From: Macrostomum lignano
Taxonomy: Eukaryota
Direction: 5' to 3'
NCBI GenBank assembly: GCA_002269645.1
Contig: NIVC01001377.1
Span: 62,001 to 126,000, forward strand
Length of the DNA stretch: 64,000 nt
Below, piece after piece: positions 22,345 through 45,083 of this stretch. The notes beneath the pieces are model-generated. The model ran no database searches. It saw only the letters and a program-made list of their open reading frames with translations, and was not told the origin of the DNA. The position numbers were made by a program, and so were the translations under genes. How positions within the stretch are numbered: position 1 is the first letter of the stretch; each line of letters starts with the position of its first letter.

Positions 22345-22468
22345 TGAGGTTTAAAACCCCACTTTATCCAGCTTCATAAACCTAGCGCTACTTATAGGAT
22401 GTAGAAACAGTTCAACTTTTCTATCAGGGTGGTCACCCTCAAAGTTTTTTTTTTATTTTAGAGAAAAA

Positions 22469-25400
22469 ATGCCAAAAGCTAATCCAGCAAAAGATTTAGT
22501 CAACAAATATTTTTCAAAAGGCGTCTCATTTCAAGACAAAAGTAATTTACTAAGAGAAGCATGTAAACAAAAGTTTAACACCGACCCTGGTCACCTGGGA
22601 AGCTATGAAAAACAGTTGGAAATCATCAATCAATTAGAATCAACCAGTATGCGCCTATAAAAAATCTGCAAAGGAACACCAAGAGAGGAGTCGCAACTTA
22701 GTTAACAAATACGAAACTCTCACTGGTGAAAAAGCAAAGTACCCACAAAATAAGCAGGAACAAGAGAAATTAGAGCAATTAATCCATTTAAAAGAGTCGG
22801 AGCTTGCCATTGAAGAGATTAATTTTGCACAGAGGAAGTTTACAGAACATTACATAGAGTACACAATCCCAATTAACGGCACCAACGGTACCACCGCAAA
22901 CATCTACGACTATAAAGACAGCATCCAATCAGTTGTTGATCACACACTCAAAACACGCAAGACTTTAAACTACAGATATCATTCAAGATTGCGTTTTATA
23001 TGCCTGCAAAACCCACTGAGCATCTCGAGTATTACATGACAACAAAGGCAAAGCCATTCACCCCTACAGACACACTGGATCCTTTCCTTCAAGATGTCAC
23101 TAAGAAAATTGAAGCGTTTACATCCAGAGGTTCCGGATGGGTCGTGGGAGGGATTCAAAGAGCGACTGTCATGGTCATGAAATATGACCCACTTAAAGCC
23201 TCCTCTTATATAGAGCTCCCGCATAAGCTAGCCGGTAAAAAAGCTTGCATAAATGTTAAAAATAAAGACAATTGCTGTGCTCTATGGGCAGTTCTTTCTG
23301 CACTTCTTCATGATAGTGTCCCTCACCACCCCGAAAGAACCTCAAATTATCAAAATTATTTCAACTACTATCTCATCGAATGCGAAAAGAAGGGAATCAG
23401 GTTTGACAAAGGAGGCTTGGCGATCTCTCAGATCCCAAAGCTAGAAGAAGTGTTTAATAACAAAATTAGAATCACAGTCTTTGAGTGGAGTGAAAAAACT
23501 GAGAAAGTTCAACCGGTCAGATGTAGCAAAGACGTTTTAGATCCTGAGGGGAAAAGGCGGACTGAAGTGGATCTTCTAGTGATTGGTAATTTACTAGAGG
23601 AGGCTCACTATGTTTGGATTAAAGATCTTTCAAGACTCATTCACAAGCAGTTGAATAATCATCACGAGGCTGTTGCCATCTGCCGCTTGTGCCTTAAGCA
23701 TTACAGTGGACCTGAACGCTTTGAAAAACTAGCAGAGCATGAATTATCATGCGAGGATCACCCGACAAACTGCTCTCTTCCTTCAGCTGAAGAGAAGTAT
23801 CTCCGGTTTAAGAACTATCACAAGATGGAGAAGCTCCCATTTGTTGTATATGCTGATTTCGAATGCTCAATCGTGCCAGAACTCAAAAACAAACTCAAAC
23901 TCAAAAACATGTCCCCAATTCAGTAGCATATGCCTTTATTAATACAAAAGGACTTGTTGAGTATAATTATTTCTTTGGAGAGCAGTGTGTGGAGCAGTTT
24001 ATTGCCAGAATGTTAGAGTTGCAAAAAGTGATTAGCACCCTTCAACCTGTTCCAATAATGATGACTGAGGAGGATGAAAGCAATTTCCTATCAGCAACTC
24101 ATTGCCACATCTGCAGGAAACATTAACTTGCACTAATATTAAAAACCCCACCGTTAGGGACCACTGCCACTTTACTGGGAAATTTAGAGGTGCAGCGCAT
24201 AACACCTGTAATCTAAAGCTAAAATCGAACATTCATGATCTAACGATATTTTGTCACAACGCAAAGAACTATGACATGCATTTAATAGTTGAAAAAATCG
24301 GCATGATTCCAGACATACACCTTGATGCATCGCAGAGAACAAGGAGAAGTTTAAGTGTGTTGATATTAAACAGGATAATTCGGGTACAGGTAAAATAAGA
24401 CTGAAGGATTCATATCAATTTCTAGCTGCCAGTCTAGACGAACTAAGCAAGAATCTAAAAGATGAACAATGTACATATACAAAGATGTTTGCAAGTAAAA
24501 TTAACAACAGTGATGAATCATTTAAACTTTTAAGAAAGAAAGGCTTCTACCCCTATGAAAATATTACTGGGTATCACGTATTTGAAGAAGGTTTACCACC
24601 ACAAGAAGTTCTTTTCAAAGCTAACAGACTCTGGAATCTCTGACAAAGACTATGAGCACGCGAAGCATGTCTATAATTACTTTAATTGTCAAAACTTCTT
24701 CCAGTATCACCTGCTTTACCTCTTCACAGATGTGTTTCTGCTGGCTGATGTGTTTGAAACCTTCAGATACACCTGGTACACAGCATATGGCCTCGATCCA
24801 GCACATTATGTGTCTCTGCCTGCCACTAGCTGGGAATCTTTGCTTAAAATGAAATGGGATCAAGATCCAGATTGGTACATTGAACTTCTTACAGACATTG
24901 ACATGTACAATTTTGTCGAATCGTCAAAGCGAGGGGGAATCTCAATTTGCGTTAACAGGTATGCAAAAGCAAACAATCCCTACATTGAATCTTACAATAA
25001 GGAGCAGCCCTCAAACTACATTACTTACTTGGACGCTAATAATCTCTACGGGTGGGCGATGAGTCAAGATCTTCCAGTTAGAGATTTTCGATGGCTACCC
25101 TCATCAGAATTCAAATGGGACTTTTCATTGGCTGCCATTTATGAGGTTGATGTTTACATTCCACCAGAGCTTCACGACTATTTCTCTGACTTTCCACCCT
25201 TCCCAGAGAACATCAAGTGCCCGAAAATAATCGAAACTCCCAATGATAATAATGGAACTTGGCACCTGTCAGGAACAGAAAAAGAACATACAGAGAAACT
25301 AACACAGAATCTAAACAACAAGACACGTTACAAAATCCATTACAAACTGCTTCAGTATTTTATCTCACTTGGTTGCAGGGTCACCAAAGTTCACAGGGCT

Positions 25401-26306
25401 CTTACATTTACAGAGGAAGCGTGGATGAAACCCTACATTGATAAGAACACCCAGTTTAGGACCAAAGCAACCAACGACTTTGACAAGAACCTCTTTAAGT
25501 TGGCCAACAACTCTGTCTATGGCAAGACTCTTGAGAATGAGCGGAAAAGAACAAACCTGAAACTTGTTACCTCATCAGAGCCTGCTGTTATTCAGGCAAA
25601 TATGTCAAAGCCAACATTCAAAGAACTCCATATCTTTAATAGCTACTTAGGTGTGATCATATTTTACAAAACCAAGGTGACGCTGCGCAAGCCGATCTAT
25701 ACAGGTGTCACTGTTCTCGACGAATCAAAACGTCTGATGTACCAGTTCTTCTATGGCATGAAGCAGCAGTACAAGGATAAAATGAAACTCTTGTACACTG
25801 ACACAGACAGTTTTATTATGGACATTCAAACAGAAGACATTTATCAGGACATGCTGCAGCAAAAAGATTTGTTTGACTTGTCTGAGTATGATGAATCTTT
25901 CAGGACACAGAATGGCGATCAAGTGTTTGACGCCACTAACAAGAAAGTGATTGGGAAAATGAAGGACGAGATTGCTGGTGACATAATCACTGAATTCATT
26001 GGGTTGAGAGCAAAGTCCTATTTTGTAAAATGTGAGTCGTCAGACCCAATTAAAAAATCAAAGGGAATTCCGAAACGTGTGGTTAGGAAGGAAATTAATG
26101 AAGCTGAATACAGAGACGCCTTGAATTGCAACAAAAAGACATCACATGAGTTCTCAAAGCTACAATCTAAAAACCATATTATTCACACAATTCAGCAAAA
26201 GAAGATTGGACTGTCAGGTGCAGATAACAAGAGATTCATTTTTGATGACAATATCAACAGTCTACCGTTCGGGCATTGGAGATTAGGTTTAGGAGGTTGG
26301 GTTTAG
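22469..26306 (+). CDS. Protein-primed family B DNA polymerase (with N-terminal extension), broken by ~6 frameshifts
   Basis: Motifs across successive frames: YADFEC (ExoI), VRDHCHFTGKFRGAAHNTCN, FCHNAKNYDMH, DSYQFL, YLDANNLYG (motif A), KLANNSVYGKT (motif B), LLYTDTDS (motif C). Confidence 0.95.
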
Positions 26307-26359
26307 GAGGTGGAGACTAGGTTTAGGTTTAAGAGAAAGTTTAATAAACCTCATAAAAA

Positions 26360-26758
26360 ATGACGACAAATAACTTTCTTGAAGATTTGGCTAACGAACT
26401 GGAAATCCCAAACTTTAGAGGAATATTTATGAGGGACACTCTGCCTGATTTTCCTCTAAGAAAGGAATGCGGCATCATGAACTTTGACACCACCGATAAG
26501 CCAGGATCTCATTGGGTTTGCTGGGTGATTGATCCCGATCGCAAGCACAAGTGTTATTACTTCGATAGCTATGGGACGGCAGTACCAGAAGAGCTAAGAA
26601 ATTATATGAAGGGAAAAAATAAAAAAATTTATCGCTCAGACTTTATTCTCCAAGGTCTTAGCAGTGATATTTGCGGTGAGCTGTGCATGACTGTTTTGTA
26701 TGCAATGACCAAAACACGAAAGACCTACAAGGAAATTATTCGTACCTGTGTTTCATAG
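26360..26758 (+). CDS. Adenain-like cysteine maturation protease
   Basis: PGSHWVCW (His), YFDSYG (Asp), ILQGLSSDICGELC (Gln/Cys); intact, 132 aa. Confidence 0.92.
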   Translation: MTTNNFLEDLANELEIPNFRGIFMRDTLPDFPLRKECGIMNFDTTDKPGSHWVCWVIDPDRKHKCYYFDSYGTAVPEELRNYMKGKNKKIYRSDFILQGLSSDICGELCMTVLYAMTKTRKTYKEIIRTCVS

Positions 26759-26762
26759 GGGT

Positions 26763-27464
26763 TCATTGTGCATTTCTCGTCGTCCTTCTTACCGAATTTC
26801 TCGTTGTCCTTCTTTCCGCATAATGTTGAAGAACTTTCTCGAGTTCATTTCTCAGCTGACTCATGTCATCAGTACCGACCATGTTCAAGTTCATTCGAAT
26901 TGATTGTTCATAAAGATCCTGAATGGTTTTGAACTCATCCTCTGAAATGAACTTATCCTCGATTGCCCTTGAAATGTACCCTATGATTGATGTGTGCACC
27001 CCTTTCTCTTTTACTTGCTTCTCCTGTAGCTGCTTTAGTTTTTTTCGCCTGTTTCGCGCTAATGCTCCAGTAATTGCTGAAATAAGTCCACATGCAGCAC
27101 CCACAGAGCCGAGCGGGATTGCGATTGGGGCTGTGATGACTGGCAACACTGAGACAGCTGCAGCAGATCCAGATAGAACAGACACAGATCCTAGAATCAT
27201 ATTGCTGTAGTCGAAAAATTTACAGTGGCTGTCATAGCGCTTAATTTTCTTTGTGTTGTGGAAAATATTTTTTTCAAGATCATCGCGCATTTTTTGAATC
27301 TCCACCAGTCGAAACTGTTGAGAGTTACAAGTAATGACGGGGTAGAGTTTTTGTTGCTCATATTGGGGTGCATAGGTGCTGTGGGTGTGAATTCGGTGCC
27401 ATTTGGTTTGGTGCTGTCGGTATTTTAGGTTCAGACTGATCGTATAGAGAATTTTGTTGGGCCA
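26763..27464 (-). CDS. Polinton protein with long Gly/Ala hydrophobic segment (putative membrane-active), 5' frameshift(s)
   Basis: QQFRLVEIQKMRDDLEK followed by ILGSVSVLSGSAAAVSVLPVITAPIAIPLGSVGAACGLISAITGAL. The likely ATG at 27464 is in a different frame. Confidence 0.65.
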   Translation of the reverse strand, partial: WPNKILYTISLNLKYRQHQTKWHRIHTHSTYAPQYEQQKLYPVITCNSQQFRLVEIQKMRDDLEKNIFHNTKKIKRYDSHCKFFDYSNMILGSVSVLSGSAAAVSVLPVITAPIAIPLGSVGAACGLISAITGALARNRRKKLKQLQEKQVKEKGVHTSIIGYISRAIEDKFISEDEFKTIQDLYEQSIRMNLNMVGTDDMSQLRNELEKVLQHYAERRTTRNSVRRTTRNAQ

Positions 27465-27500
27465 TTTTTTTTCCCTAGAAAAAATAAAAAAATTATAAAA

Positions 27501-28286
27501 CTATCCGGTTTGAAGATCTATTGTTTTGAAAAAAGATCTGTTTTCTTTTGATTTGATTAGATTTTGATGAAATTTGATAATTTCATCTGTAGACATGACC
27601 GGACGAGCAGTAGATTCTGCTTCATCAATAGCAATGTCACGAAGATTGAGTGTTCTCTCCAGACGATTAAGCCTCCTTATTATTTTACCCCAATAGCTAT
27701 ACATTCCGTTTAGATAGCTACTGTGTGATACATCCTTTCTCTTTAATGCCTCAAGTCTTTCTTTGATTCGATCATGCAACGATGTTGACTGAGTCATGAA
27801 CTCTTCTAAATTCCTCACTTTAACTGTGTTGGTTGCGACGTTTTCTTTAATTCTATCATGCAATGCTGTTGACTGGTTTATGAACTCTTCTAAATTATTC
27901 ACTTTAGCTGTGTTTGTGAAAACTCCTCCTTCAAGAATACGCATCCGTCTATCAGTGGAATTTCCCAGAAGATTAACTGTCGATCTTAAGCTGTTGATTT
28001 GCGAGACTGCCGAAGTTATTTCTGACCTTAGTTCATTAGTTGCGTGTACAACCTGTACATAAAGCTTATCACTTTCAAACTTCTGCCTAGCTACTTTATG
28101 CGAGATCTTCTATGTTTATTGTAGCTGGTGCATGGAGCGCTCTAGGGCTTTCAGTCTGTTTTTATTCAGTTTGATCTCTGGGATCTTTTCGTCGCTGTTG
28201 ATATATCGCCTGTCAAGGATGGATATCTGAGCTGATGTAAGAGCGCTGTTGCCAGAAATGGATTCACCTGCAAAGTTTATCGACAT
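27501..28286 (-). CDS. Hypothetical coiled-coil viral protein, frameshifted
   Basis: ATG at 28286 (MSINFAGESISG...). It contains an internally repeated NTxKVxNLEEFxxQSTxLHDRIKE unit. Confidence 0.55.
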
Positions 28287-28302
28287 CTTTTAATAGCAAA
28301 TT

Positions 28303-29101
28303 TTAAATTACAGTTCTTTTTTCTTTGCTGATAATCACAAACTGGTAAGGCTGATTCCACTTGTCATAGCAAAGATTAACGAATTCCTCTTGTGAAATCT
28401 TTCTGCTTGAGTTTTTTGTTGGATTTATGAAATAGGCAGGCGCAATGACCTCATTGTAAAATCTTTTTAACCTGTCCTGTGGAATGGTTGGAAACAGGAG
28501 AATCAGATTGCAGTTCCCACGAATTGTTTTGTTCGGGAGCTCGAACCAATTCTGTGCAATGTAAATTACATTACAATTGTTATGTCGCCCTCTTGTAAAA
28601 TAGTTTTCTATCTGCTTCTGTGGGCCTGTCATACAATCATCAAAGACGATCAAATGCTTTCTCCCTTTTCTAGCTCATCTGGTTGGGGTAGAAGTTTGGT
28701 CTTTGGATCAGCCTGTGGATCTCCATAGGTGAACACTTTAATGTTCTGCCATTTTTCATTGTCTTTGAGGTGCTTTGCATATTCAGCAGCTACAATTTCT
28801 GGGTTACTGGGAAGGATTTGTTGGTTATTAAAACATTGAATAATGTCCTCTTTGTTCAGTTTGTTTTGCAATCCAGAAATCAGCATTTTATACTCATCTT
28901 GATACAGTGTGGGAGAGTAGATGTGCAGAGTGTCATAGTCGATAAAGCCAGGTCTAAGAAGCATGTTAAAGACTCTGAATGTTTTACCTGAACCTGATGA
29001 ACCAACAACAATGCATCTGAAGTGACTCGGATTGACTCGTGATGAGAAAACTTAATCTGATTACGCGTCCAGTGAGGATTGAAGTCGTTTGAAAAGTCCA
29101 T
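28303..29101 (-). CDS. A32/FtsK-like packaging ATPase, two frameshifts
   Basis: HFRCIVVGSSGSGKT (Walker A, in a frame not shown in the track), IVFDDCM (Walker B), FTRGRHNNCNVIYIAQ (conserved R-H and Q motifs). Confidence 0.92.
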
Positions 29102-29137
29102 TTTTTCTATGATGAAAAAAAATTTAAATATAAATAA

Positions 29138-29325
29138 TTTAGATGTGTCATTTCGGGACTTAGATGTGTCATTTTGGGACTTAGATGTGTCATTTTGGGA
29201 CTTAGATGTGTCATTTTGGGACTTAGATGTGTCATTTTGGGACTTAGATGTGTCATTTTGGGACTTAGATGTGTCATTTTGGGACTTAGATGTGTCATTT
29301 TGGGACTTAGATGTGTCATTTTGAG
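29138..29325. repeat. 21-bp tandem repeat inside the Polinton (GACTTAGATGTGTCATTTTGG), ~9 copies
   Basis: Intergenic, immediately upstream of the ATPase ATG. Confidence 0.95.
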
Positions 29326-29370
29326 ACTAGTCTTGTACCTTTACATTTCTTGTACCCTCGGAAAGTACCT

Positions 29371-29748
29371 TTAGTCAAATTTGAAACCACTTCCTTTTTT
29401 AATGCTTGCTCTCATCTTCTCATAGACTGCAGGGTCCACACTGTCTGGGTTTGGGGCCAGCGGAGCCAGAGGTTGAATCTCTTGTTTAGGTGTTACAGTA
29501 TCCTTTATCTTTTTGGCTGCTGTGGCTACACTGCCAGCCGCTTCGGCAACGTTCTTGATGTTCTCTTTGTTCTCTCCAATGACCTTAAAAATCTTGGCCC
29601 CCTGAGCGATCAAATCGGCAAGGCCATTCCCAGAGCGTTCTTTTCTTGGATAGTGGCCTGCAAGGAAAAGTCCAGATCCGCGTTTAATGAGATTAAGTTC
29701 CTCTTTGTCATAGTATTTGTCCACGTCTTTCTCAAAAATAATGGGCAT
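29371..29748 (-). CDS. Small putative core/membrane-lytic virion protein with GxG cleavage-like motifs
   Basis: ATG at 29748 (MPIIFEK...). It contains RGSG|LFL, SGNG|LADLIAQGAKIFKVI (amphipathic) and KKGSG|FKFD. Confidence 0.6.
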   Translation of the reverse strand: MPIIFEKDVDKYYDKEELNLIKRGSGLFLAGHYPRKERSGNGLADLIAQGAKIFKVIGENKENIKNVAEAAGSVATAAKKIKDTVTPKQEIQPLAPLAPNPDSVDPAVYEKMRASIKKGSGFKFD

Positions 29749-29764
29749 TTTTACTTGAAATAAA

Positions 29765-31001
29765 TTATTTTTTGTTGAACCGCGAAAGCAGAAGCTCTCT
29801 CGCCCTCTTATCGATGTATTTTCTCTCAAGCATTTTGTCCAGGATGTTGACAAATTCTTTTCTATTCTCATCTTTCATTCCGGTCTTTGCCGCTCCTAGA
29901 AGAACCGCTACTCGCTTGTAGATTTCAGAAATTCCTTTTCCAGTTGCGGGCGGTTGGTCTTGGGTTGTGGAGTTGGTTGGGCTTGTAGCTGCTGGGGAGG
30001 TGATGCAAAAGACTGCTCACTTTCAGAGATGGAACTGTCATGTGGTGCCTGTCTTTGTTGAGGTGTGAAAACTCTTTGCTTGATTCTATTCATTCGATCT
30101 GGAGAGTGTTGTTCTAAATGTTGCCAGTCTGTTGGGTTTTGTTTCTTATATTCAGCTACTTTCAAAGGGTCTAACTGCTCGAGTTGACTGAGTACTTGTT
30201 CTTCTGTGAATGTTGCTGCTGTGGTTGTGGTTGTTGTTGTTGCTGTTGTTGTTGTTGTTGTTGTTCTAGATATTTTATGACTTCCGCCTGATCTGGCAAA
30301 TCGAACCATTGTTTAAAGTGTTTGTACTTTTTGAATCTAGTCAGGTTGACACCGTTATCATACATAAGTTTCAGGACTTCTGGGGCCTTTAGTATTTCTA
30401 TATCTCTAGCAAGAGCAAAAGTCACTAGATCTCTATAGTTCTTTAGCTGTTTGTCCGAGATTCTCTCTTGGTTCTTGGTCATAAAAGTCAGTAAGGTTTC
30501 TGTGAAAGGAATGCTCTTAGTTTCCGAGCCTTTGACAACAGAAATATGTTTCTTATTTATGTCGATATAATATTCCACTGGTTAATTATAAATATTTTTT
30601 CTCCACATACTTATTCCAAATACATATTTCCCATCATGTTCTACACGCTCTACTGGTCCAAAAATGTTATCTGTCACTTTTAGTTGCTGCTGCGGTTGTG
30701 ATTGTTGTGGTTGTGATTGTTGTGGTTGCGGTTGTGCCTGTGGTTGCGGCTGTATCTGTGGTGCTTCTGGAATTTTGCCCAAAGCCTTTTGCACCTGGGT
30801 TTCCTGTATGTCGTCGATAGTTTCTTTGACCTGATCAATATTTTTCTTAGCTTCTCCATACCCGGGCTTATGAAACTCTGTGGCTGCTTGGACAAACTCA
30901 TTGTAGGATTGTTGCTCCTTATTTATTAGCCCGGTAACTCGTTTCTCTGCTTGTGCTAGCTTCTCCAATTCAGATATCTGCTGTGTACTTTTTCGCTTCA
31001 T
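29765..31001 (-). CDS. Gln-rich Polinton hypothetical protein split by frameshifts
   Basis: Three track ORFs (30582-31001, 30171-30578, 29908-30309) plus a final segment ending ENRKEFVNILDKMLERKYIDKRARELLLSRFNKK* abut with 1-2-nt frame changes. Confidence 0.6.
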
Positions 31002-31031
31002 TTCTTATTTTATTTTATTTTTAGTTAAAAA

Positions 31032-32318
31032 ATGAACGACCCACTGACACCAGTTTTCTACAAAATTAACAAGCCTATTTTGAGTGATGACAGCACTATT
31101 AAGGCGACTCAGGTAAGAGTTCCCAGTCAGGAAAATCAGAATGAAACTAATCTTGGTCCAGGTCAAACACTGACATTTACATACAATGGATGTTCGTCTT
31201 TGGTTAGTGTGCACAGTCTTAAGAGCGGCTTCCATATGACATTTCAATTCAAGACAAAGGGTGGTGCGGATGCGGCTCGTGCTAACGTTGACAAGCATGA
31301 TGCGGATGTGGCTCTGATCAGTAACTTTTGGGCGTACATGTTCAAGGAGTTTAGTGTATCGAATGGGAGCACAGAGTTGGAGCGAATCGCCAACTTTGGA
31401 ATTGTCTATGACGCTCATTGTTTGATCGAGAATCCTGATTTTATTCAGTTGGGAAGTGGTGCGGGTTTTATTGCAGATGAAAAAGAAGGAGACACCAATT
31501 ACAGTGGCTATAAAAAGAGGAAGAAGAGATACAACTATGCATTGCAAGGTGCTGATGATGCTGCTAAGAACCCACAGTATCGGTCTGTTGATGTATTTGT
31601 ACCATTGAGATTCATGAGTGGATTCTGTAATACATTTAATCGACTGACTAGTAACTTTAGCTACACCTTTAGGATGACTAGAGATGATCGCAGTAGAGTG
31701 TTGTGGACTGGGGCGGATCACACAAGGATGGAGGTGAAGCTAACCGGAATCGAGCTGTATTTGGAAGTCATTGAGCCAAAGACTGCACTAAAAGCAGACT
31801 ATCTTAAGGCAATAGAGAAGGACATTGATGTTGCATACACAGCCTACATGTGTCGAGATGAGCGAAACGAAACTAGAACAAACATCTGCATCAAAGAGGG
31901 ATCATGCAGCAATCCAAGGTATATCATTATTAATATGAGAAACCCAAATAGCATTATACGCTACATGCATGGAGACGTGCGGTCCATTCAGCATGAAATC
32001 AGTGATAATCTTTACCCTGCACTGCCACAAAATGGAGATTTCAGTCAGAACAAGATTAGCAAATTTTACAGCGAGTTGGTCGACTTGGCTGTGAAAGAGA
32101 ACAATGGAATTGCTATCACTGCTCTTCAATATGGAACTCTATATCCGATGTTTGGCGCTGATGTGTCTGCCAGACAAATGCCTACTGATAACAGCCCTGT
32201 GAATATCGTGACTAACATTGAAAGGACTGCCGCAACACCCGTGGACCTGTACATTGTCTATGCATTTGAGAGGAAGGTGAAGCTTAACATGATCAACAAT
32301 TCATCCAGTAAAGTTTAA
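31032..32318 (+). CDS. Major capsid protein (double jelly-roll, hexon-like)
   Basis: Intact 428-aa ORF. Its size, its position next to the minor capsid gene and the C-terminal LYPMFGADVSARQ motif fit a Polinton MCP. Confidence 0.8.
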   Translation: MNDPLTPVFYKINKPILSDDSTIKATQVRVPSQENQNETNLGPGQTLTFTYNGCSSLVSVHSLKSGFHMTFQFKTKGGADAARANVDKHDADVALISNFWAYMFKEFSVSNGSTELERIANFGIVYDAHCLIENPDFIQLGSGAGFIADEKEGDTNYSGYKKRKKRYNYALQGADDAAKNPQYRSVDVFVPLRFMSGFCNTFNRLTSNFSYTFRMTRDDRSRVLWTGADHTRMEVKLTGIELYLEVIEPKTALKADYLKAIEKDIDVAYTAYMCRDERNETRTNICIKEGSCSNPRYIIINMRNPNSIIRYMHGDVRSIQHEISDNLYPALPQNGDFSQNKISKFYSELVDLAVKENNGIAITALQYGTLYPMFGADVSARQMPTDNSPVNIVTNIERTAATPVDLYIVYAFERKVKLNMINNSSSKV

Positions 32319-32341
32319 ATATTTTTTTGTCGGTGAAAAAA

Positions 32342-33204
32342 ATGGAAGCCATAGCCGAAAGACTAAACAACATTGTTTCACACTCTAAGGAGAGCATTCC
32401 TATTACAATAACCGGGCGAATTAATGACTCAAACGGGATGTTTGTTGAAAAATTAGAGCAGGCGATTCGCCTGGATCCAGGCGCTAATTACCATGTCTAT
32501 CTTAACGACTTCACTGGTTGGTCAAACGTTCCCAATGTGATGGCAGCAAATAATAAGTTTTATTACAAATGGAAAGGTGCAGCAGCAGACCCTGTGGTAT
32601 TCCAGGTGAGCACGCAAAGTGTGGATACCTACAATAACTTTCTAGAAAATGTCTTTACTAAGAGAGGCCATTTTGAGACACCTGATGCGAGTAAGCCAGA
32701 GAAGAAACTGTTCCCTGTCAAACTAACCTATGATCTGACTGTAATGAGAGTGGTCATGCAAGTTCACAAAGATGCGGAGGTTGAGTTTAAAGATGACACT
32801 TGGTATAGGGAACTGGGATTCGAGAAGAAAGTTTATAAGGCAGAATCCGCGGCGCAGACCGCCACTCAAGCATCGGGACTGTTAGAATGGTCCGGGAAAG
32901 TGTAAGCGGTTTGTTCTTAGCACCCAATATTGCAGACATTGTAAAGGGTTTGAATATTCTAATCAGAAGCAATCTCAGTCTTGATTGGGTATTTAAGGGA
33001 AAGCGAACTAATATTTTGTACAACATCTCCAACTCTGTAGCTGGAGGACAGATGGTGGTAGAGAAACCAAATCCAGTGAAAAGAGTTGTATTGAGTAATA
33101 AGGAGATTCACGAGATTGTGCTACAGTTTGAGACTGAAGATGGGATGGGCGTTGATTTTAATGGGGAAGAGTTTGTATTGACGTTAATCATTGAGAGAAT
33201 GTGA
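32342..33204 (+). CDS. Minor capsid protein (single jelly-roll, penton-like), one frameshift at ~32877
   Basis: WSNVPNVMAANNKFYY ... NILIRSNL ... VDFNGEEFVLTLII; directly follows the MCP. Confidence 0.78.
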
Positions 33205-33510
33205 TGGAAAAATAACTAAATATTTTATTTCAGTTCTATTTCGAATTTTTAGTATATTTTTTCTAGTCATATTACTTATTAGTAGGCAACCTCACGCTTT
33301 TAGACTGACCAAGCATTATTTTTTTCTAACCAGTATTTAGTGAAAGGATTGAAAACACAAAAGAAATCGGACACAAAAAGATGTCCGATGTCAAAAGTTG
33401 GTTAACTTCGCAAGTATTCGCACATAACAAACACAAGTCTGTCACTAGTCTTTCTCAGAAAAAAAAGCTTTCTTTTTGCACAGTTGAATTCGTGCGAATT
33501 CCTGTTATGC

Positions 33511-34924
33511 ACATGATTTTTACGAACGTTCGTGAAAATCATGTAACCACTGAGAGCCGCTTTATGCTGCACATGATTTTTACGAACGTTCGTGAAAATC
33601 ATGTAACCACTGAGAGCCGCTTTATGCTGCACATGATTTTTACGAACGTTCGTGAAAATCATGTAACCACTGAGAGCCGCTTTATGCTGCACATGATTTT
33701 TACGAACGTTCGTGAAAATCATGTAACCACTGAGAGCCGCTTTATGCTGCACATGATTTTTACGAACGTTCGTGAAAATCATGTAACCACTGAGAGCCGC
33801 TTTATGCTGCACATGATTTTTACGAACGTTCGTGAAAATCATGTAACCACTGAGAGCCGCTTTATGCTGCACATGATTTTTACGAACGTTCGTGAAAATC
33901 ATGTAACCACTGAGAGCCGCTTTATGCTGCACATGATTTTTACGAACGTTCGTGAAAATCATGTAACCACTGAGAGCCGCTTTATGCTGCACATGATTTT
34001 TACGAACGTTCGTGAAAATCATGTAACCACTGAGAGCCGCTTTATGCTGCACATGATTTTTACGAACGTTCGTGAAAATCATGTAACCACTGAGAGCCGC
34101 TTTATGCTGCACATGATTTTTACGAACGTTCGTGAAAATCATGTAACCACTGAGAGCCGCTTTATGCTGCACATGATTTTTACGAACGTTCGTGAAAATC
34201 ATGTAACCACTGAGAGCCGCTTTATGCTGCACATGATTTTTACGAACGTTCGTGAAAATCATGTAACCACTGAGAGCCGCTTTATGCTGCACATGATTTT
34301 TACGAACGTTCGTGAAAATCATGTAACCACTGAGAGCCGCTTTATGCTGCACATGATTTTTACGAACGTTCGTGAAAATCATGTAACCACTGAGAGCCGC
34401 TTTATGCTGCACATGATTTTTACGAACGTTCGTGAAAATCATGTAACCACTGAGAGCCGCTTTATGCTGCACATGATTTTTACGAACGTTCGTGAAAATC
34501 ATGTAACCACTGAGAGCCGCTTTATGCTGCACATGATTTTTACGAACGTTCGTGAAAATCATGTAACCACTGAGAGCCGCTTTATGCTGCACATGATTTT
34601 TACGAACGTTCGTGAAAATCATGTAACCACTGAGAGCCGCTTTATGCTGCACATGATTTTTACGAACGTTCGTGAAAATCATGTAACCACTGAGAGCCGC
34701 TTTATGCTGCACATGATTTTTACGAACGTTCGTGAAAATCATGTAACCACTGAGAGCCGCTTTATGCTGCACATGATTTTTACGAACGTTCGTGAAAATC
34801 ATGTAACCACTGAGAGCCGCTTTATGCTGCACATGATTTTTACGAACGTTCGTGAAAATCATGTAACCACTGAGAGCCGCTTTATGCTGCACATGATTTT
34901 TACGAACGTTCGTGAAAATCATGT
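33511..34924. repeat. 60-bp tandem array: 24 copies of a 34-bp imperfect palindrome separated by an invariant 26-bp spacer
   Basis: ACATGATTTTTACGAACGTTCGTGAAAATCATGT (self-complementary except one T/G pair) plus AACCACTGAGAGCCGCTTTATGCTGC; the copies appear identical. Confidence 0.98.
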
Positions 34925-34953
34925 TATCAGTGGGAATCGAACCATGCGGGGCA

Positions 34954-34996
34954 GACTGAGACCGGTTTCGGGCTTGTTTGCCCTCGTCAGTCAGTC
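34954..34996 (-). ncRNA. Minimal type-I hammerhead ribozyme
   Basis: Minus strand reads GACUGA-CUGACGA-GGGC(AAACAA)GCCC-GAAA-C(CG)G-UC|UCAGUC. It has a perfect 6-bp stem I, the full CUGANGA/GAAA/NUH core, a 4-bp stem II and a palindromic ACCGGU stem III. Predicted cleavage is after C34960. Confidence 0.9.
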
Positions 34997-35043
34997 ATAG
35001 CCACGCGAGGTCGGCTCCACCTCTAGCCAGCTGAGTGGAACTG

Positions 35044-35052
35044 CTATTTATA
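35044..35052 (-). promoter_or_regulatory. TATA box (TATAAATAG) ~50 nt upstream of the hammerhead
   Basis: Consensus TATA in a GC-rich context, oriented toward the ribozyme and the array. Confidence 0.45.
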
Positions 35053-35261
35053 CGCCCTTGCACCAAGTCCTTGCCTTGCACATGGCGACATTTTCTAGTC
35101 CACCATGTGAGGAATTCGCGCCATGTTCAAATAGCTTTACTATCAGTAAGCTATCGCTTACAAATGTAACTAATACGAGCCGCTATATGCTGCACATGAT
35201 TTTGTCAGTATTTTTAGATCTTGCGTCTGCACTCTACAGGGTACAACCGTGTAGTTGGCTA

Positions 35262-35498
35262 CTACAACTGCCTTATAACTTCAGCAAAGTTATAATAGCT
35301 GTCAAAATTGTTAATGACTACTCCGTGTTTTTCAAACCAGTGAGATTTAAGTGCTTGATTAATATTAGGGACATTGATATCAACGTCGGGCCAATATTTT
35401 CTCATGTATTCGCTGCATTCTAGTTTGCATTGGTACTTGGATTTGTACAATGGATGAGGCTGAGTATAATAGGAACCTGGAGAGACAACTGGAAACAT
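35262..35498 (-). CDS. Small 78-aa ORF in subterminal inverted region (paralog of 19755-19994)
   Basis: MFPVVSPGSYYTQPHPLYKSKYQC is identical in both; the C-termini diverge. Confidence 0.6.
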   Translation of the reverse strand: MFPVVSPGSYYTQPHPLYKSKYQCKLECSEYMRKYWPDVDINVPNINQALKSHWFEKHGVVINNFDSYYNFAEVIRQL

Positions 35499-35562
35499 TT
35501 TTATTGAGAAATTAATTTTTTTTCAAAGGGTAAGGACCCTGCGCTGATGATTTAAAGTCTTT

Positions 35563-35982
35563 GGGATCTGGTTTCAACGCTTCGGATTGAATGTGGGGAG
35601 AAGAATGCAGATTATTTTCTGATTGTTTCGAAGATGCTATGGGTGGATGTTGGTGGATTATGTCTGTGTCAGTGAGCATAACAAGTGTCCACAGTGAGCA
35701 TAACAGGTATCAGTGGACACCTGCTCTGATTCTGTCAGGGATAATATGGTTGGATTTAATGGGATTATGTTCGAAGTTTTCGGAGCAAGTGCGGCCCCTC
35801 CCCTTTTTCATGATTCTGTCAGGGATAATATGGATGGATTTAATGGGATTATGGAGGAGGTTTTGTGAGCAGGTGCGACCCCCCTTTTTTTCTGATTCTG
35901 TCAGGGATAATATGGATGGATTTAATGGGATTATGGAGGAGGTGAAAAATTTTGTCCCAGAAGCCCCCTCATGCCTTCTACT
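35563..35982 (-). repeat. Right terminal inverted repeat (420 bp)
   Basis: Reverse complement of 19269-19688. Confidence 0.95.
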
Positions 35983-36277
35983 GAGGGGAGAGAAAGAGAA
36001 AATGAATTTTACATTCTGTCAGATCAGGTTTTTACGTATTGCATATTGTAGGCATGCTTTGGAGGTGCGATCGGAGTGATTGGTTGCCATAATTTGTATT
36101 TAAAGCGAAATGAGTGCTGGGTGGTATTTCAGCAATGTTTCGAACTCAGGTTGAAGTTGTGAACTCAGAAATTCGGCCACTCGGCATCGAATAAAAATGA
36201 ATTATTGATGGGCAAATTTAACAAATTCTATTGCATGTGAATCTCAGCATTCTAATGATGAACCCAGCCTCACTCAC

Positions 36278-36639
36278 CTGCTCCCACTGCCACCTGTGCG
36301 TGGCCCTCCGTCACCTGCAGCCGAGTGGCGTCTCTGCAGGAGTATTTCCTTTTGCAGCCACCTTTCATATGGAACTTTTGCTTAGCAACCAGCACAGTCC
36401 AGTCAATGTCCGAGTCTGCAGCTGTCCTGCCGTTCACTTGCACCAGACTGTTGGCCCAGCCCTCTGCGTAGCTGCCCGTCATCTGCCTGCCATCCTGTGT
36501 GAGGACTCGAGCGACTCCTTCCAGCCAGTCAGCCAGTCCCTGCTGACACTCTGCTCTCTGCTCGGTGAATCCCGCATCGCTGAGCAGTCGATGCAGCTCC
36601 CTGCTTAGACGGCGGTCCTGCTCGGAGTGGTCCCAGCGT
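36278..36639 (-). CDS. Exon 3 of ANK-cGLR gene: nucleotidyltransferase active-site motif
   Basis: MTGSYAEG...ADSDIDWTV is the GS...DxD signature of the pol-beta/cGAS NTase fold. Acceptor ccccAG at 36641-36640; donor GTGAGT at 36277. Confidence 0.85.
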
Positions 36640-36738
36640 CTGGGGAGAGGTAAGAGTGGAGTGAGTGGAAGCGGATTTGCAAAGTGGCCCAAGCTCAACC
36701 CAAAGAAGGAAAGGTGGAATGAAAGCGGTCACACTCAC

Positions 36739-36780
36739 GGATGGAGGCGTTGAGCGGCTGCCTGCAGGTGCTGTGGGTTT
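36739..36780 (-). CDS. Predicted 42-nt microexon 2 of ANK-cGLR gene
   Basis: Polypyrimidine-ttccAG acceptor and GTGAGT donor; the exon is symmetric in phase 2 and open (ENPQHLQAAAQRLHP). Confidence 0.6.
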
Positions 36781-36864
36781 CTGGAATGTGTGAAGGAAAG
36801 GGAGGTAAGTTGGTGAAGTGATTGCAAGTAGAATTGCAACTAATGGCAACAAATGGCAACTGAC

Positions 36865-37856
36865 TCGGTGGGATTCAGCAACCGCAGCACCTGCCGCTGC
36901 TCATATCGCTGTGCGAGCTGCGCACACGTGAGGCCCTGACTGTCTCGATGGCTGGCATCGGCTCCATTGTCGATGAGAGTCTTGGCTGCTCGCACGTGAC
37001 CGGCTTGGCAGGCTCGTGACAGAGCAGTGCGACCGTGAGTGTCTTGAGCGTGCAGTGAGGCGCCGAGATCGATGAGTTTGTGAATGAGTTCGTGCTGACC
37101 AGCATCAGCTGCGAGCATTAGAGCGGTGGCTCCAGTGTTGTCGTCTGGAAGATCGACATGCTGTGTGCTGAATCGCTCATGATTGAGCAGTGTGGCGGCA
37201 AGAGCGACGTGTCTTTGAGAGATGGAGAGACAGAGCAGCTGTGTGATTTGATCTGGCTGCATTCGAGAGAGGGTGTCGGTGAGAACGGAGTTGCTGCCTT
37301 CGATGGCCATCGCTGCAGTGAAGCTGAGGATGGTGTTGGATTGGAAGAGCCATTGGGGCTCGAGGCCGAGGGAGGCAACGAAAGGTTCTTGAAGATTAGA
37401 GCAAGCGTTTATTGAGTATTGGAAACGGAGATTCCTACTTTGATCGGGATTCGAGAGACACGAGATGAGAAACTCAACGATTTCAAAGTGACCATATACT
37501 GCAGCATTTTCGGCAGCTTTGATGCAGCAGGTGTCCCAGTTTGATTGGTCATTGATTTGTAAGAGGAGAAACATGATGATTTCAAAGTGACCTAATACTG
37601 CAGCATATTCGGCAGCTTTGATGCAGCAGGTGTCCCTGTTTGATTGGTCATTGATTTGTGAGAGGAGAAACTTGACGACTTCAAAGTGACCACTGAATGC
37701 AGCAACTTCGGTAGCTTTGATGCAGCAGGTGTCCCTGTTTGATTGGTCATTGATTTGTACGAGGAGAAACTTGACGTCTTCAAGGCGACCTTTACGTGCA
37801 GCATCAGCAATGTTTTCGGTGGTCGCTTGCTGATGTCGGCTTTGATTTTGGCCCAT
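36865..37856 (-). CDS. Exon 1 of ANK-cGLR gene: MGxxxS myristoylation motif plus ankyrin repeats
   Basis: MGQNQS start, four GHFEIV-type 33-aa repeats, then canonical ankyrins (GATALMLAADAG, GRTALSRACQAGH); GTCAGT donor at 36864. Confidence 0.85.
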
Positions 37857-37904
37857 TGTTCTGGAGAACGGTATGGATAAAAAAGGTTAAGTGGGAGAAA
37901 GGAG

Positions 37905-38290
37905 AAGTCAGAGTGGCAGATGTCAGTCACGGCTGCTGTCAGAGTGGCAGATGTCAGTCACGGCTGCTGTCAGAGTGGCAGTTGTCAGTCACGGCTGCTG
38001 TCAGAGTGGCAGATGTCAGTCACGGCTGCTGTCAGAGTGGCAGATGTCAGTCACGGCTGCTGTCAGAGTGGCAGATGTCAGTCACGGCTGCTGTCAGAGT
38101 GGCAGATGTCAGTCACGGCTGCTGTCAGAGTGGCAGATGTCAGTCACGGCTGCTGTCAGAGTGGCAGATGTGAGTCACGGCTGCTGTCAGAGTGGCAGAT
38201 GTCAGTCACGGCTGCTGTCAGAGTGGCAGATGTCAGTCACGGCTGCTGTCAGAGTGGCAGATGTCAGTCACGGCTGCTGTCAGAGTCGCA
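37905..38290. repeat. 31-bp minisatellite (same family as 945-1296)
   Basis: Tandem copies. Confidence 0.95.
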
Positions 38291-38892
38291 GGTGTTTCAA
38301 AGGTTTGTGCAGCCGGTTGCCAGAAAATTTTTAACGCCTAATTCCTCAGCTGCTCACATTTTTTGCAGCCTCTGTCGAGGCCACCCCTTGACCACCCCGG
38401 CCTCAGCAACCGAAACTTCTCTCCCGAGCGTGAGCGCTTTTGCCTCTGTGCACCCAGCATGGCAACGGAGAGGCTGCGGCTGCAGCGGCCACCCCAAGCT
38501 GTACTTGATGAGGCTGAGCTGACCCATTGTGCCTGAGTGCAGTGTGAGATCTTTAAATGCATTTAATGGCCCACTGAGCGGTGTAAAATGCTGCTCAGTG
38601 CCGCAGTGCATCGGTTTGAGGAGGCGGTCAAATGTACATAAAATGCATTGTTAAACTGGACCAGTGTTCTCTCTCACTCTGCCCACTGGCCTTCGTAACT
38701 GTAGCAGCTGCAGAGCATTGGCTGGCTGGCAACAGGGCTCTGGCTTTCTCCCGACTCTCCTATGCTTTCACCTGCTCCTCTCGTGCGCAGCTCAGGCAGT
38801 TGAGAGTCTGCTGGGCTGAGTTTGGCGAGTGCATTTAGCAGCAATAACTTACATTCTTTTGCTTTTCTACAGAAGCCTCTCATCACTGCCGC

Positions 38893-40435
38893 TCCCTACA
38901 GTCAGCATCCCTACAGTCAGCATCCCTACAGTCAGCATCCCTACAGTCAGCATCCCTACAGTCAGCATCCCTACAGTCAGCATCCCTACAGTCAGCATCC
39001 CTACAGTCAGCATCCCTACAGTCAGCATCCCTACAGTCAGCATCCCTACAGTCAGCATCCCTACAGTCAGCATCCCTACAGTCAGCATCCCTACAGTCAG
39101 CATCCCTACAGTCAGCATCCCTACAGTCAGCATCCCTACAGTCAGCATCCCTACAGTCAGCATCCCTACAGTCAGCATCCCTACAGTCAGCATCCCTACA
39201 GTCAGCATCCCTACAGTCACCATCCCTACAGTCACCATCCCTACAGTCAGCATCCCTACAGTCAGCATCCCTACAGTCAGCATCCCTACAGTCAGCATCC
39301 CTACAGTCACCATCCCTACAGTCAGCATCCCTACAGTCAGCATCCCTACAGTCACCATCCCTACAGTCAACATCCCTACAATCACCATCCCTACAGTCAG
39401 CATCCCTACAGTCAGCATCCCTACAGTCAGCATCCCTACAGTCAGCATCCCTACAGTCAGCATCCCTACAGTCAGCATCCCTACAGTCAGCATCCCTACA
39501 GTCAGCATCCCTACAGTCAGCATCCCTACAGTCAGCATCCCTACAGTCAGCATCCCTACAGTCAGCATCCCTACAGTCAGCATCCCTACAGTCAGCATCC
39601 CTACAGTCAGCATCCCTACAGTCAGCATCCCTACAGTCAGCATCCCTACAGTCAGCATCCCTACAGTCAGCATCCCTACAGTCAGCATCCCTACAGTCAC
39701 CATCCCTACAGTCACCATCCCTACAGCCACCATCCCTACAGTCAGCATCCCTACAGTCAGCATCCCTACAGTCAGCATCCCTACAGTCAGCATCCCTACA
39801 GTCAGCATCCCTACAGTCAGCATCCCTACAGTCAGCATCCCTACAGTCAGCATCCCTACAGTCAGCATCCCTACAGTCAGCATCCCTACAGTCAGCATCC
39901 CTACAGTCAGCATCCCTACAGTCAGCATCCCTACAGTCAGCATCCCTACAGTCAGCATCCCTACAGTCAGCATCCCTACAGTCAGCATCCCTACAGTCAG
40001 CATCCCTACAGTCAGCATCCCTACAGTCACCATCCCTACAGCCACCATCCCTACAGTCAGCATCCCTACAGTCAGCATCCCTACAGTCAGCATCCCTACA
40101 GTCAGCATCCCTACAGTCAGCATCCCTACAGTCAGCATCCCTACAGTCAGCATCCCTACAGTCAGCATCCCTACAGTCAGCATCCCTACAGTCAGCATCC
40201 CTACAGTCAGCATCCCTACAGTCAGCATCCCTACAGTCAGCATCCCTACAGTCAGCATCCCTACAGTCAACATCCCTACAGTCAGCATCCCTACAGTCAG
40301 CATCCCTACAGTCAGCATCCCTACAGTCACAATCCCTACAGTCAGCATCCCTACAGTCACAATCCCTACAGTCACCATCCCTACAGTCAGCATCCCTACA
40401 GTCCCCATCCCTACAGTCACCATCCCTACAGTCAC
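38893..40435. repeat. 15-bp satellite (CCCTACAGTCAGCAT), left part, highly homogeneous
   Basis: ~100 copies; interrupted by the Gypsy element. Confidence 0.97.
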
Positions 40436-40691
40436 TGTGGTGACTGCGTTTCGCTTTCTGTGCAGAGTGGGGGATGGGGGGCTGTCTCTCTCTCTCTCTC
40501 TCTCGGATTGTACTCGCGCACGTGCATACTCTGGAGCGCGAGCACGCCAGAGGTAGCGGCTGATTGGTCAGCCTAGTCAGGCTGGAAAATAAACTGGTAT
40601 TTATTGAGAGAGCTAGGCTTGGCCAGCTCTAAGAAGATTTTTTCTCTCTGCAAGCCACTCAGACTTTGTTACAGTGGCGACGAGGTGACTA

Positions 40692-43600
40692 ATGGCCACG
40701 GGCCTACTGTGTAGCATCGGTCCATTTGAGCCTGAAAATGAGGACTGGCTGCAGTACAAGGAAAGAGTGGAGCAAGTTTTCATTGCAAGCGACATAGAGT
40801 CCGAAGACAAAAAGCGAGCTGTCTTCCTCAGTGTCTGTGGCAAGGAGACATTCAAGCTGATTTGCAGCCTGCTGGCCCCGAGGAAGCCATCGGAGACGAG
40901 CTACGCAGACATTTGCCAAAAACTAAAGGAGCACTGGAAGCCGGAGCCTTCTGAAATTGTGCAGCGTTTTCATTTCTATCAGCGCGTGCGGGCCAGCACC
41001 GAGTCAGTGGCGGATTTCCTGGCCAGTTTGCGGCGTCTGGCCGTGGACTGCAAGTTCGGAAACAGCTTGGAGTCGATGCTCAGGGATCGGCTAGTGCTCG
41101 GCATCCAGGACGATCGGATCCAGCGCAGACTGCTGTCGGAGCCGGAGCTGGATCTCGAGAAGGCGCTGAAGATCGCTCAAGCGGTGGAGCTGGCGGAAAA
41201 AGGCTGCACGGTCGTCAGGAGCTCACAGGAGGTGGCTGGCCCTGCGGCGGCTGCTTCAGTCGATCGAGTCGACCAGGCCAAGGCGACCGGATCTGGTCGA
41301 GCCCCACAGAAGTGTTTCCGGTGCTTGTCGACTCGACATCTGGCGGACAAGTGCCCGTTCATCAAGAAGGCATGCTTCAAGTGCGGCAAGCTCGGGCACA
41401 CCGCAGCTGCTTGCCGTAGAGGCGCCGGGGCATCTGGTGCGGACTCCAAGCCCCGCGTGGGCGCCGTGCAAGAAGCAGAAGACGAGGACTGCAGCTCCCT
41501 TAACACCGTGCCCAGCGTTGCAGCCAAGGTGCCACCCTACTTGACCAAGGTACTGATCAACGGCGTGTCCTGCCAGATGGAGATAGACACGGGCGCCGCG
41601 GTGTCGTTGATCTCAGCCAAAGTCTACCAGGATCTTCTCGGAGGTATCCCTAAGCTCGGTGGGACCACGATTCGGCTGCGAAACTACGGCGGCCAACCTG
41701 TCAACGTGCTGGGACAGTTGAGCGTCACAGTGGAGATTCCAGGAAATGAAAAGAAACTGCTGCCTCTGGTGGTGGTCTCAGGAAGCGGCTCCAGCTTGAT
41801 CGGACGGAACTGGCTGTCTGAACTAACCATGGACTGGAGAAGCATCAAGGAGCTGCGAGAGCGAGAACTGCCGGCTCAGGGAAATCAGCAGGTGGAGCAG
41901 CTGCTGCAAAAGTACAGCGCAGTATTTTCGGACGGACTCGGTTGCTACACAGGCGAACCACTGAAATTGCGGACGAAACCAGGTGCACAGCCCAAATTTT
42001 TCAAAGCTCGGACGGTGCCGTTCGCTTTGAAGTCCAAGGTGGAAGAGCAGCTGGACCGGGAGATCGAGCAAGGCGTTCTGCAGCCTGTCTCTAACTCCGA
42101 GTACGCGTCTCCTATCGTGCCGGTGCTCAAGGCGGATGGATCCGTCAGAATCTGCGCGGATTTCAAGCGCACGGTGAACCAAGACGTTGTGCAGGACTCC
42201 TACCCGCTGCCCAGAATTGAAGAATTGTTCGCAAAGCTAACAGGAGGCCAGAAATTCACCAAGCTAGACCTCAGTCAGGCGTATCAGCAACTGCCCCTGG
42301 ACTCGGAATCACAGCGTCTGTGCACCATCAACACCTCCAAAGGGTTGCTCAGGTACACCAGGTTGCCGTTCGGCATCTCACCGGCAGTCGGCATGTTTCA
42401 GAGGACAATGGACGGCTTGCTTCAAGGAAGACCGCACACGGCGGCTTTTATCGACGATCTGCTGGTGACAGGAACTGATGACGCGAAGCACCTGGAGAAC
42501 CTGGAAGCCGTTTTGCAGCGCCTACAAGATGCTGGGCTGAAGTGCCGAGCTGACAAGTGCCGGTTCATGCAGGAGTCCGTGAGTTACCTGGGCCACCGAA
42601 TCGACGCCGGCGGTCTCCACCCGCTGGAAAGCAAGGTCAGCGCGATCGTTGAGGCGCCAGCTCCCCAGGACGTCACCCAACTCCGCAGCTTCCTGGGCCT
42701 CATAAATTATTATGGACGATTCCTGCCGAACCTGTCCAGCTTGCTCGCTCCGCTGCACCGCCTATTGGACAAGGGCGCTGTCTGGCAATGGAACAGCCCG
42801 CAAGAGAGTGCGTTTCACCGCTGCAAGGAGCTCCTGCTGAGCTCTCAGACGCTAGTGCATTTCGACCCCGGTAAAGAGGTCATCCTGGAGTGCGACAGCT
42901 CGCCCTACGGTCTCGGCGCGGTCATCTGCCACCTAATAGACGGCGTGGAGCGGCCCATCTCGTTTGCGTCCCGCACTCTGGCCGATGCGGAGAAGAACTA
43001 CTCCCAGACGGAGAAGGAGGCCTTGGCAGTTGTTTTCGGCGTCAAGCGATTCCACACCTATCTGTACGGCCGGAACTTCCAGCTGAAGAGTGACCACAAG
43101 CCGCTTCTAGGACTGCTTCACGAGAACAAGGCCATTCCGCCACTAGCATCTGCCAGGATTCAGCGCTGGGCTCTGCTGCTGTCCAGCTACTCCTATCGAC
43201 TGCAATACCGCAAGGGCGCCACCCTGCTGCGGGCGGATGCACTGAGCCGGTTGCCGCTGCCGTCCAAGCCAGCGGAGGCGCCGGCGCCGGCTGAGGTGGT
43301 ACTGCTGATCGACTCATTCAACGAGGGCCCAGTGACTGCGGCTCAAGTTCGCTGCTGGACACGGCGAGACCCGCTACTCGGTCGAGTGCTCAGGTTCGTG
43401 CAAGAAGGCTGGCCGGAGGATCGGCGAGGGAGCGAAGATCTGCGGCCGTTTGCGTCTCGAGCTGCGGAACTTAGCGTGGAGGACGGCTGCCTGCTGTGGG
43501 GCACCAGAGTGGTGGTGCCGGTTCAGGGACGCCTGGCGTTGCTCGAGTGTCTGCACCAAAGTCACCTAGGAGCGTCCAAGCTGAAGTCGCTGGCCAGGAA

Positions 43601-44654: not shown

Positions 44655-45083
44655 ACGTTTTTTTGTTTTTTTCCATGACAGACCTTTTTTGTTTACAGCT
44701 TTGGGTGGTGTTCGATTTTTTTTGTTTCTGTTATTGTTGTCGTGGTGCTGGGAAGTATTTTCTTTTCTCTTTTTTTGTTTCTTTTTTGTTGCGGTTTTTT
44801 TCTTTTTTTCATCTACGTGTGGAGGGATGTGGTGACTGCGTTTCGCTTTCTGTGCAGAGTGGGGGATGGGGGGCTGTCTCTCTCTCTCTCTCTCTCGGAT
44901 TGTACTCGCGCACGTGCATACTCTGGAGCGCGAGCACGCCAGAGGTAGCGGCTGATTGGTCAGCCTAGTCAGGCTGGAAAATAAACTGGTATTTATTGAG
45001 AGAGCTAGGCTTGGCCAGCTCTAAGAAGATTTTTTCTCTCTGCAAGCCACTCAGACTTTGTTACAGTGGCGACGAGGTGACTA

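Follow-up and report, generated by a model that had tools for sequence, protein, structure and literature searches.

A 64,000-nt stretch of Macrostomum lignano DNA (contig NIVC01001377.1; here called the window) holds a tandem array in which one 60-bp unit, built around an imperfect palindrome, recurs without a single change. The original prediction likened the array to the homologous regions (hrs) of baculoviruses, which act as enhancers and origins. What is such an array doing at this locus, and does the hr model describe it?

The array and the element that carries it

The 60-bp period is exact throughout the array (23.6 periods, zero differences; Table 1). We searched for the palindrome with wildcards at both unpaired T/G positions and found 24 copies in the array, every one with 0 mismatches; comparison of the units showed that the unpaired T/G is identical throughout as well. 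The rest of the window contains no copy at up to 3 mismatches, and 0 are expected by chance (100 shuffles). These results bear out the predictions that the 24 copies lack variants and that all keep the same single mismatch. The predicted outlying unit is also there: it lies 303 bp from the last unit and is without the palindrome core.

Table 1. Positions of the array, its Polinton and the neighboring features in the window.
Feature	Position	Strand	Basis
Polinton/Maverick (adintovirus-like), 16.7 kb	19269-35982		TIRs, TSD, gene content
6-bp target-site duplication (TSD)	left copy 19263-19268; right copy 35983-35988		sequence identity
Twin of the 78-aa ORF, diverged, inner left TIR (78/79 aa)	19755-19994	+	sequence comparison
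Cassette (array, ribozyme, TATA, outlier), edges approximate	33213-35261		missing at matching left-arm position
AATAAA, possible end of a transcript through the array	33224-33229	-	only one on minus strand from 33100 to the TIR ORF
Tandem array, 60-bp unit, 24 identical 34-bp imperfect palindromes with 26-bp spacers	33508-34924		exact periodicity
Perfect three-pentamer heat-shock elements, 24	first 33523-33537; last 34903-34917	+	match to consensus
B-box-like motif (Pol III internal promoter)	34933-34943	-	exact consensus match, unique on both strands of the window
Type I hammerhead ribozyme, GUC cleavage triplet, cut inferred after 34960	34954-34996	-	Rfam HH9 and geometry (PMC4209133)
Canonical TATA box, oriented to ribozyme and array	35045-35052	-	TATAWAWR match
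Diverged partial unit (half arm and spacer), 40 bp, 88% identical, without heat-shock element	35164-35203		sequence comparison
78-aa ORF, inner right TIR, directly upstream of the cassette, weakly RNase T2-like	35262-35498	-	Pfam, PDB search

For comparison, we used the 28 TRF arrays of the window that have a period of at least 12 and at least 5 copies. The window has 62 TRF rows, and tandem repeats (TRF) make up 32.5% of it outside the Polinton. The palindrome arms of the array are 17 bp long, and the next best among the 28 are 8 bp. Full (100%) identity at the array's own period occurs in two of the 28, our array and 51279-51707 (15 bp x 28.6). Three more reach about 99% uniformity, two of which are one duplicated array, and most arrays of the window keep 3 to 12% variation. 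The predicted DNA hairpin energies are -10 to -11 kcal/mol for a single unit and -31 to -33 kcal/mol for two units (stability z -4 to -5).

Several other identities were tried for the array. Open frames of 539 and 506 aa run through it on the two strands; a 160-aa piece gave 18 protein matches at 16 to 37% identity, none below 1e-30, and the Pfam matches contained no significant stretch, so we rejected a protein-coding role for the repeat. A CRISPR-like array was ruled out by the identical spacers. Rfam matches to miRNA families fell far under their gathering scores and were driven by the hairpin. A bacterial promoter scan, irrelevant here, gave results at chance level. The plus-strand G-U pair is uninformative as a sign of RNA selection, since any transition in a palindrome yields one. 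When the array flanks were aligned with each other and with the left end, none of the 6 local alignments exceeded shuffles. We found no relatives of the palindrome in bacterial and archaeal genomes or phages, collections that are poorly suited to the question. To the left of the array, the minus strand has a 9-bp hairpin with T-rich sequence after it (33366-33389), and EcoRI sites lie on both sides of the array (three, at about 33487, 33497, and 35113). The minus strand of every unit, and of the outlier (35190-35197), contains TCATGTG, which we take to resemble the M-box of MITF/TFEB factors.

The array lies near the right end of an element that, judged by its termini and gene content, is a Polinton/adintovirus by the criteria set out in PMC10748475 and PMC8502044. 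Polintons are described as 13 to 25 kb long, with TIRs of 100 to 1500 bp and TSDs of 5 to 8 bp (PMC10748475); here we found 16.7 kb, TIRs of about 720 bp, and a TSD of 6 bp. The element encodes PLA2, pX, an rve integrase, pPolB, an adenovirus-type protease, an A32-like ATPase piece, and a double-jelly-roll (DJR) capsid. The protease match (Peptidase_C5, E 1.4e-4) alone scored above its curated cutoff, those for the DJR capsid (E 2.7e-5), rve (E 0.0026), and Pox_A32 (E 0.0067) being under theirs. The pPolB piece showed 42 to 48% identity to its best 120 matches, a coral adintovirus PolB included, and had no match in the PDB. Both rve and pPolB are spread over several frames; between 20832 and 33204, the integrase, pPolB, ATPase-like, and minor-capsid genes each occupy more than one frame, in an element whose TIRs look young. 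TIRs together with a protein-primed PolB imply that a Polinton replicates from its termini. Capsid alignment, used to look for related loci in bacterial and archaeal genomes (a poorly suited collection), gave 38 pattern matches, 0 of them confirmed.

The two TIRs show 0 differences over their outer 420 bp, and all 42 differences fall in the inner 300 bp. The identity of the outer part indicates a young insertion. A uniform array then requires only amplification shortly before or after insertion, and its homogeneity needs no special mechanism. The original prediction explained the uniformity by recent amplification or by homogenization during viral replication; the young insertion agrees with the former, and the latter is possible but not needed.

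The Polinton splits an ankyrin and Mab-21 (cGAS-like) gene (17566-19262 and 35989-37856, minus strand) whose top matches are M. lignano proteins at 83 to 85%, from an expanded Macrostomum family. The 3' half of this gene is still open for 560 codons. The Polinton itself contains a second array (29139-29328, 21 bp x 9, 99% uniform), 10 bp past a TATA box at 29129, as well as an 11-bp x 4.5 repeat near its left end (20175-20229) and 82- to 84-bp x 2.6 repeats in both TIRs (19308-19526 and 35725-35943). Elsewhere in the window, a tandem Ty3/gypsy element (40436-49458) has two identical 1320-aa pol ORFs (0/3963 differences) and LTRs with no perfect heat-shock element; it is either a very recent duplication or an assembly duplicate. 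An intact LINE-type ORF with RNase H (58105-61572, minus strand) lies between identical 1362-bp direct repeats at 56652-63078. Sequences 396-1894 and 37464-38895 are 86% similar, have 99-bp and 31-bp arrays in common, and are probably paralogous genes of one family.

The minus-strand module beside the array

On the minus strand, the TIR ORF (stop at 35262) is followed in order by the outlier, the TATA box, the hammerhead, the B box, the array, and AATAAA. The array begins 9 bp past the B box and 30 bp past the hammerhead, and the first palindrome met after the B box contains a T4 run at 34918. This arrangement makes doubtful the original view that the array acts independently of any RNA role. 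The TATA box is the sole TATAWAWR match in the Polinton to the right of 31520. A possible Pol III promoter is suggested by the exact B-box match; around the ribozyme there is no tRNA-like gene, relaxed ARAGORN doing no better than shuffles (103/200 at the 80% threshold).

The hammerhead has a 6-bp helix I, an intact core, a 4-bp helix II, and a very short, palindromic helix III. Its Rfam HH9 match (34938-35008, E 2.1e-5, 29.5 bits) is under the gathering score of 52, and at the gathering threshold, Rfam gave no hammerhead match. Metazoan type I hammerheads with such a tiny helix III usually work as dimers (PMC4209133).

The whole module is missing from the matching position of the left arm, where an inverted copy of the 3' end of the minor-capsid gene comes almost immediately after the TIR-ORF stop. 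This 57-bp copy (20003-20059 versus 33146-33202, 89%), just inside the left TIR, is a relic of a formerly longer TIR. The absence of a left-arm counterpart suggests that the 2-kb cassette entered later, at the right end; on these sequence comparisons, a deletion on the left appears less economical.

In the ORF upstream of the cassette, there is similarity to RNase T2 around the second active site (Pfam E 0.003, PDB E 0.01, Atlas 0.92), and the product is possibly a miniature viral RNase. The ORF differs from its left twin mostly by conservative changes, and the twin had no match in the PDB. The single-sequence fold is unusable (pLDDT 49.8).

Heat-shock elements in the palindrome core

In every unit, the palindrome core is a perfect three-pentamer heat-shock element (HSE; GAAnnTTCnnGAA) with the pattern GAA-CG-TTC-GT-GAA. 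The published HSE consensus is NGAANNTTCNNGAAN (PMC6927752), and when at least three alternating nGAAn pentamers are demanded, the array gives 24 perfect matches. A fourth pentamer, left of the HSE, has one mismatch, which is the unpaired T/G position of the palindrome. There are 26 perfect HSEs in the window, 24 of them in the array, with 0.57 expected in the whole window from shuffles, and only 1 of the 28 TRF arrays has one. As the 24 copies make up a single event, chance is fairly tested per unit. A unit contained an HSE in 1462 of 2,000,000 base shuffles (about 0.001) and in 3092 of 2,000,000 when the one-mismatch palindrome was preserved. We tried the consensus sequences of 15 factor motifs. 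Matches were obtained for three of them, namely, the HSE (P 0.0008), an arm hexamer (0.04), and a generic E box (0.22). The HSE was the only rare motif among them. Since it was spotted after the fact, the chance corrected for 15 motifs (0.01 to 0.02) is a floor, which would rise with a larger motif set. The original prediction had proposed a site for a dimeric protein; the core instead fits the binding site of the host heat-shock factor (HSF), a trimer, and not that of a known viral dimer.

The reading we prefer, at a little less than an even chance, is that the array would be a landing pad for host HSF, working as a stress enhancer in a young Polinton. The Polinton would have picked up its cassette of about 2 kb between two convergent genes at the right end, the source probably being a hammerhead-bearing SINE or retrozyme-like repeat of about 300 bp. 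One HSE palindrome in a 60-bp piece would then have been amplified, with hairpins in displaced single-stranded DNA assisting. Under heat or proteotoxic stress, HSF trimers would load on the array, and the loaded array would enhance, in either orientation, transcription from the nearest promoters, those of the TATA box 121 bp off and of the TIR gene 574 bp off. It might also enhance the capsid genes 2.5 kb off (the capsid start lies 2476 bp from the array). The Polinton would thus be transcribed during host stress, possibly to its own benefit. Of the protein-binding enhancer and origin that had been predicted at the DNA level, the enhancer idea survives in this form; an internal origin would not be needed, since the TIRs and protein-primed polymerase should suffice.

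We favor HSF because HSEs are concentrated in the array, rare per unit, and absent from 27 of the 28 arrays, and because there are precedents for HSE or HSF use. In M. lignano, 12 of 455 LTR lineages are reported to bear HSEs; six of them carry 1 to 4 upstream of the start and respond to 37°C with an induction of about 2^7.7-fold, and a reporter placed under one isolated LTR is activated by heat (10.1101/2024.12.18.629116). Induction of hsp20 in this species is reported from 30°C (PMC6371448). Caenorhabditis Helitrons account for 61% of genomic HSEs, in dense HSF-1-bound clusters, some of more than 100 (PMC6927752), and HSF1 acts on the HIV LTR and EBV Qp (PMC9157408).

Several observations weaken the HSF reading. 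The sole nearby canonical TATA box points into the array, so that the HSEs would lie downstream of a start there, whereas those of the validated M. lignano LTRs lie upstream, and six other LTR lineages with one HSE each show no heat induction (10.1101/2024.12.18.629116). HSF binding leaves the outer 10-bp palindrome arms unaccounted for, and the outlier retains arm and spacer but not the HSE. The 24 copies count as one event, and the motif was noticed post hoc. Related loci by which conservation could be gauged were not found in bacterial and archaeal genomes or phages.

Alternative readings and known systems

Could the array be a neutral minisatellite? In that case, slippage would have expanded a 60-bp stretch, prone to hairpins, of a passenger ribozyme repeat, much as it would have done for many other arrays of this genome, and the HSE would be accidental or left over from the passenger, with no benefit to the Polinton even if bound by HSF. 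We consider this rather unlikely. The abundance of tandem repeats in the window and in the Polinton flanks fits it, as do the 15% of simple and tandem repeats in the M. lignano assembly (PMC5730564), the second fully homogeneous array of the window, the stable two-unit fold, and the apparent insertion of the cassette. However, a long palindrome or a perfect HSE occurs in just 1 of the 28 arrays, and there are documented cases of HSE capture by mobile elements in this host lineage (10.1101/2024.12.18.629116). The array might instead act as RNA: a minus-strand transcript, from the TATA/B-box promoter or the TIR gene, would be cut by the hammerhead. Either the T4 runs of the array would terminate a short, VA-RNA-like Pol III RNA, or an uncapped read-through RNA of 1.7 kb with stacked hairpins would extend to the poly(A) signal and could serve as a dsRNA decoy or siRNA source. 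The order of TATA box, hammerhead, B box, first T4, and AATAAA (33229) on one strand is consistent with such a transcript, and about 82% of the bases are paired in the predicted fold of the array RNA; Schistosoma SINEs likewise combine a Pol III promoter with a hammerhead (PMC6765202). We nevertheless regard an RNA-level module as distinctly unlikely, because there is no tRNA-like gene above shuffle level, a single hammerhead whose helix III is this short usually depends on a second copy (PMC4209133), and it is the plus strand, not that of the ribozyme, whose hairpin is fully paired. It would be compatible with HSF binding, as its output.

It is very unlikely that the unit is real while its number or uniformity stems from consensus building. 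Long reads span 1.4 kb, so the array is within their reach, and the 3 to 12% variation of most arrays in the window indicates that the assembly does not flatten arrays generally. Such an artifact would nonetheless agree with the other difference-free duplicates of the window (0/3963 and 0/1362 positions), with the frame changes in several Polinton genes, and with the reported difficulty of assembling this genome on account of its repeats (PMC5730564). Only a slim chance, the smallest we assign, is left for an hr-like origin or enhancer, in which replication would start at palindromes extruded as cruciforms or bound by a dimeric protein that the element encodes. The array does share with the hrs a tandem unit of about 60 bp with one imperfect palindrome (60 and 34 bp here, 64 and 24 bp in SpltNPVII; PMC4535591); its hairpins are stable, and several Polinton ORFs have no known family. 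But baculovirus hrs are reported as 7 to 9 dispersed loci of 2 to 8 units each (PMC4535591), whereas this 16.7-kb Polinton has one locus of 24. No Pfam family of an IE1-like transactivator was found among the Polinton ORFs, some of which are uncharacterized, and the IE1 motif is missing from the unit. The TIRs and pPolB imply terminal priming, and the left arm has no cassette at the corresponding position. Thus, the array is not a baculovirus hr. By analogy, it may act as an enhancer as an hr does; the hrs are described as using viral factors and acting as origins (PMC4535591), in which they differ from our reading of the array.

The preferred HSF reading has a more ambitious extension, which we hold to be unlikely. 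The Polinton would have assembled a stress switch from captured parts, in which the 24 HSEs confer activation by HSF while this DNA, transcribed from the neighboring promoter, gives a hammerhead-cut hairpin RNA that blunts the host RNA defense, the RNase T2-like TIR gene helping. If this were true, it would name an induction signal for the group. To our knowledge, particles of animal Polintons have never been observed, and a consensus HSE array is a specific candidate trigger for waking these elements. With such a trigger, HSE capture, seen in ONSEN, Helitrons, and M. lignano LTRs, would also include a virus-like element of dsDNA. Transgenesis, heat reporters, and published RNA-seq after heat shock exist for the genus. 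If the array is a mere minisatellite, it is ordinary. We found no report of HSEs or of hammerheads in Polintons in the literature searched, most subscription journals being outside its coverage; the one paper there that mentions both Polintons and HSEs is a plant review. Three supplements of PMC5730564 have no entry for Polinton, Maverick, Penelope, Helitron, or hammerhead.

With alpha-class adintoviruses and Polintons, as described in PMC8502044 and PMC10748475, the element has in common its size, TIRs, TSD, pPolB, rve integrase, capsid, protease, PLA2, and pX. It differs from the alpha class in that PLA2 and pX are separate ORFs, and the HSE array, the hammerhead, and the RNase T2-like TIR gene do not appear in the portions of those descriptions that we drew on. 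The hammerhead SINEs of Schistosoma and metazoan non-LTR retrozymes (PMC6765202, PMC7229834, and PMC4209133) share the type I hammerhead core with a 6-bp helix I, a 4-bp helix II, and a tiny palindromic helix III, which here scores below the Rfam gathering threshold. Promoter-like motifs are also present in the cassette, as is the spacing of a repeated head: the 303 bp to the outlier matches the usual retrozyme monomer of about 300 bp (PMC7229834). In contrast to tandem ribozyme monomers of 150 to 450 bp, we found a single ribozyme inside a Polinton, followed by the HSE array, and only a 40-bp head repeats at 303 bp.

Among HSE-bearing mobile elements, the Ty3/gypsy LTRs of M. lignano and ONSEN (10.1101/2024.12.18.629116) are comparable in having a canonical HSE near a TATA box, the former in the same genus. 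The LTRs have 1 to 4 HSEs upstream of the start, whereas the array has 24, downstream of the nearest TATA box, in a dsDNA element. Caenorhabditis Helitrons likewise contain many clustered HSEs in a tandem-like arrangement within a DNA transposon (PMC6927752). The array differs in lying in a Polinton, a virus-like element, with one HSE per 60-bp palindromic unit, an adjoining ribozyme, and putative HSF binding. Human SatIII, whose satellite transcription is driven by HSF1 (PMC9032817), is a tandem repeat that is bound by HSF and transcribed through, as the array may be; the array, unlike SatIII, is short and sits in a mobile element, outside pericentric heterochromatin.
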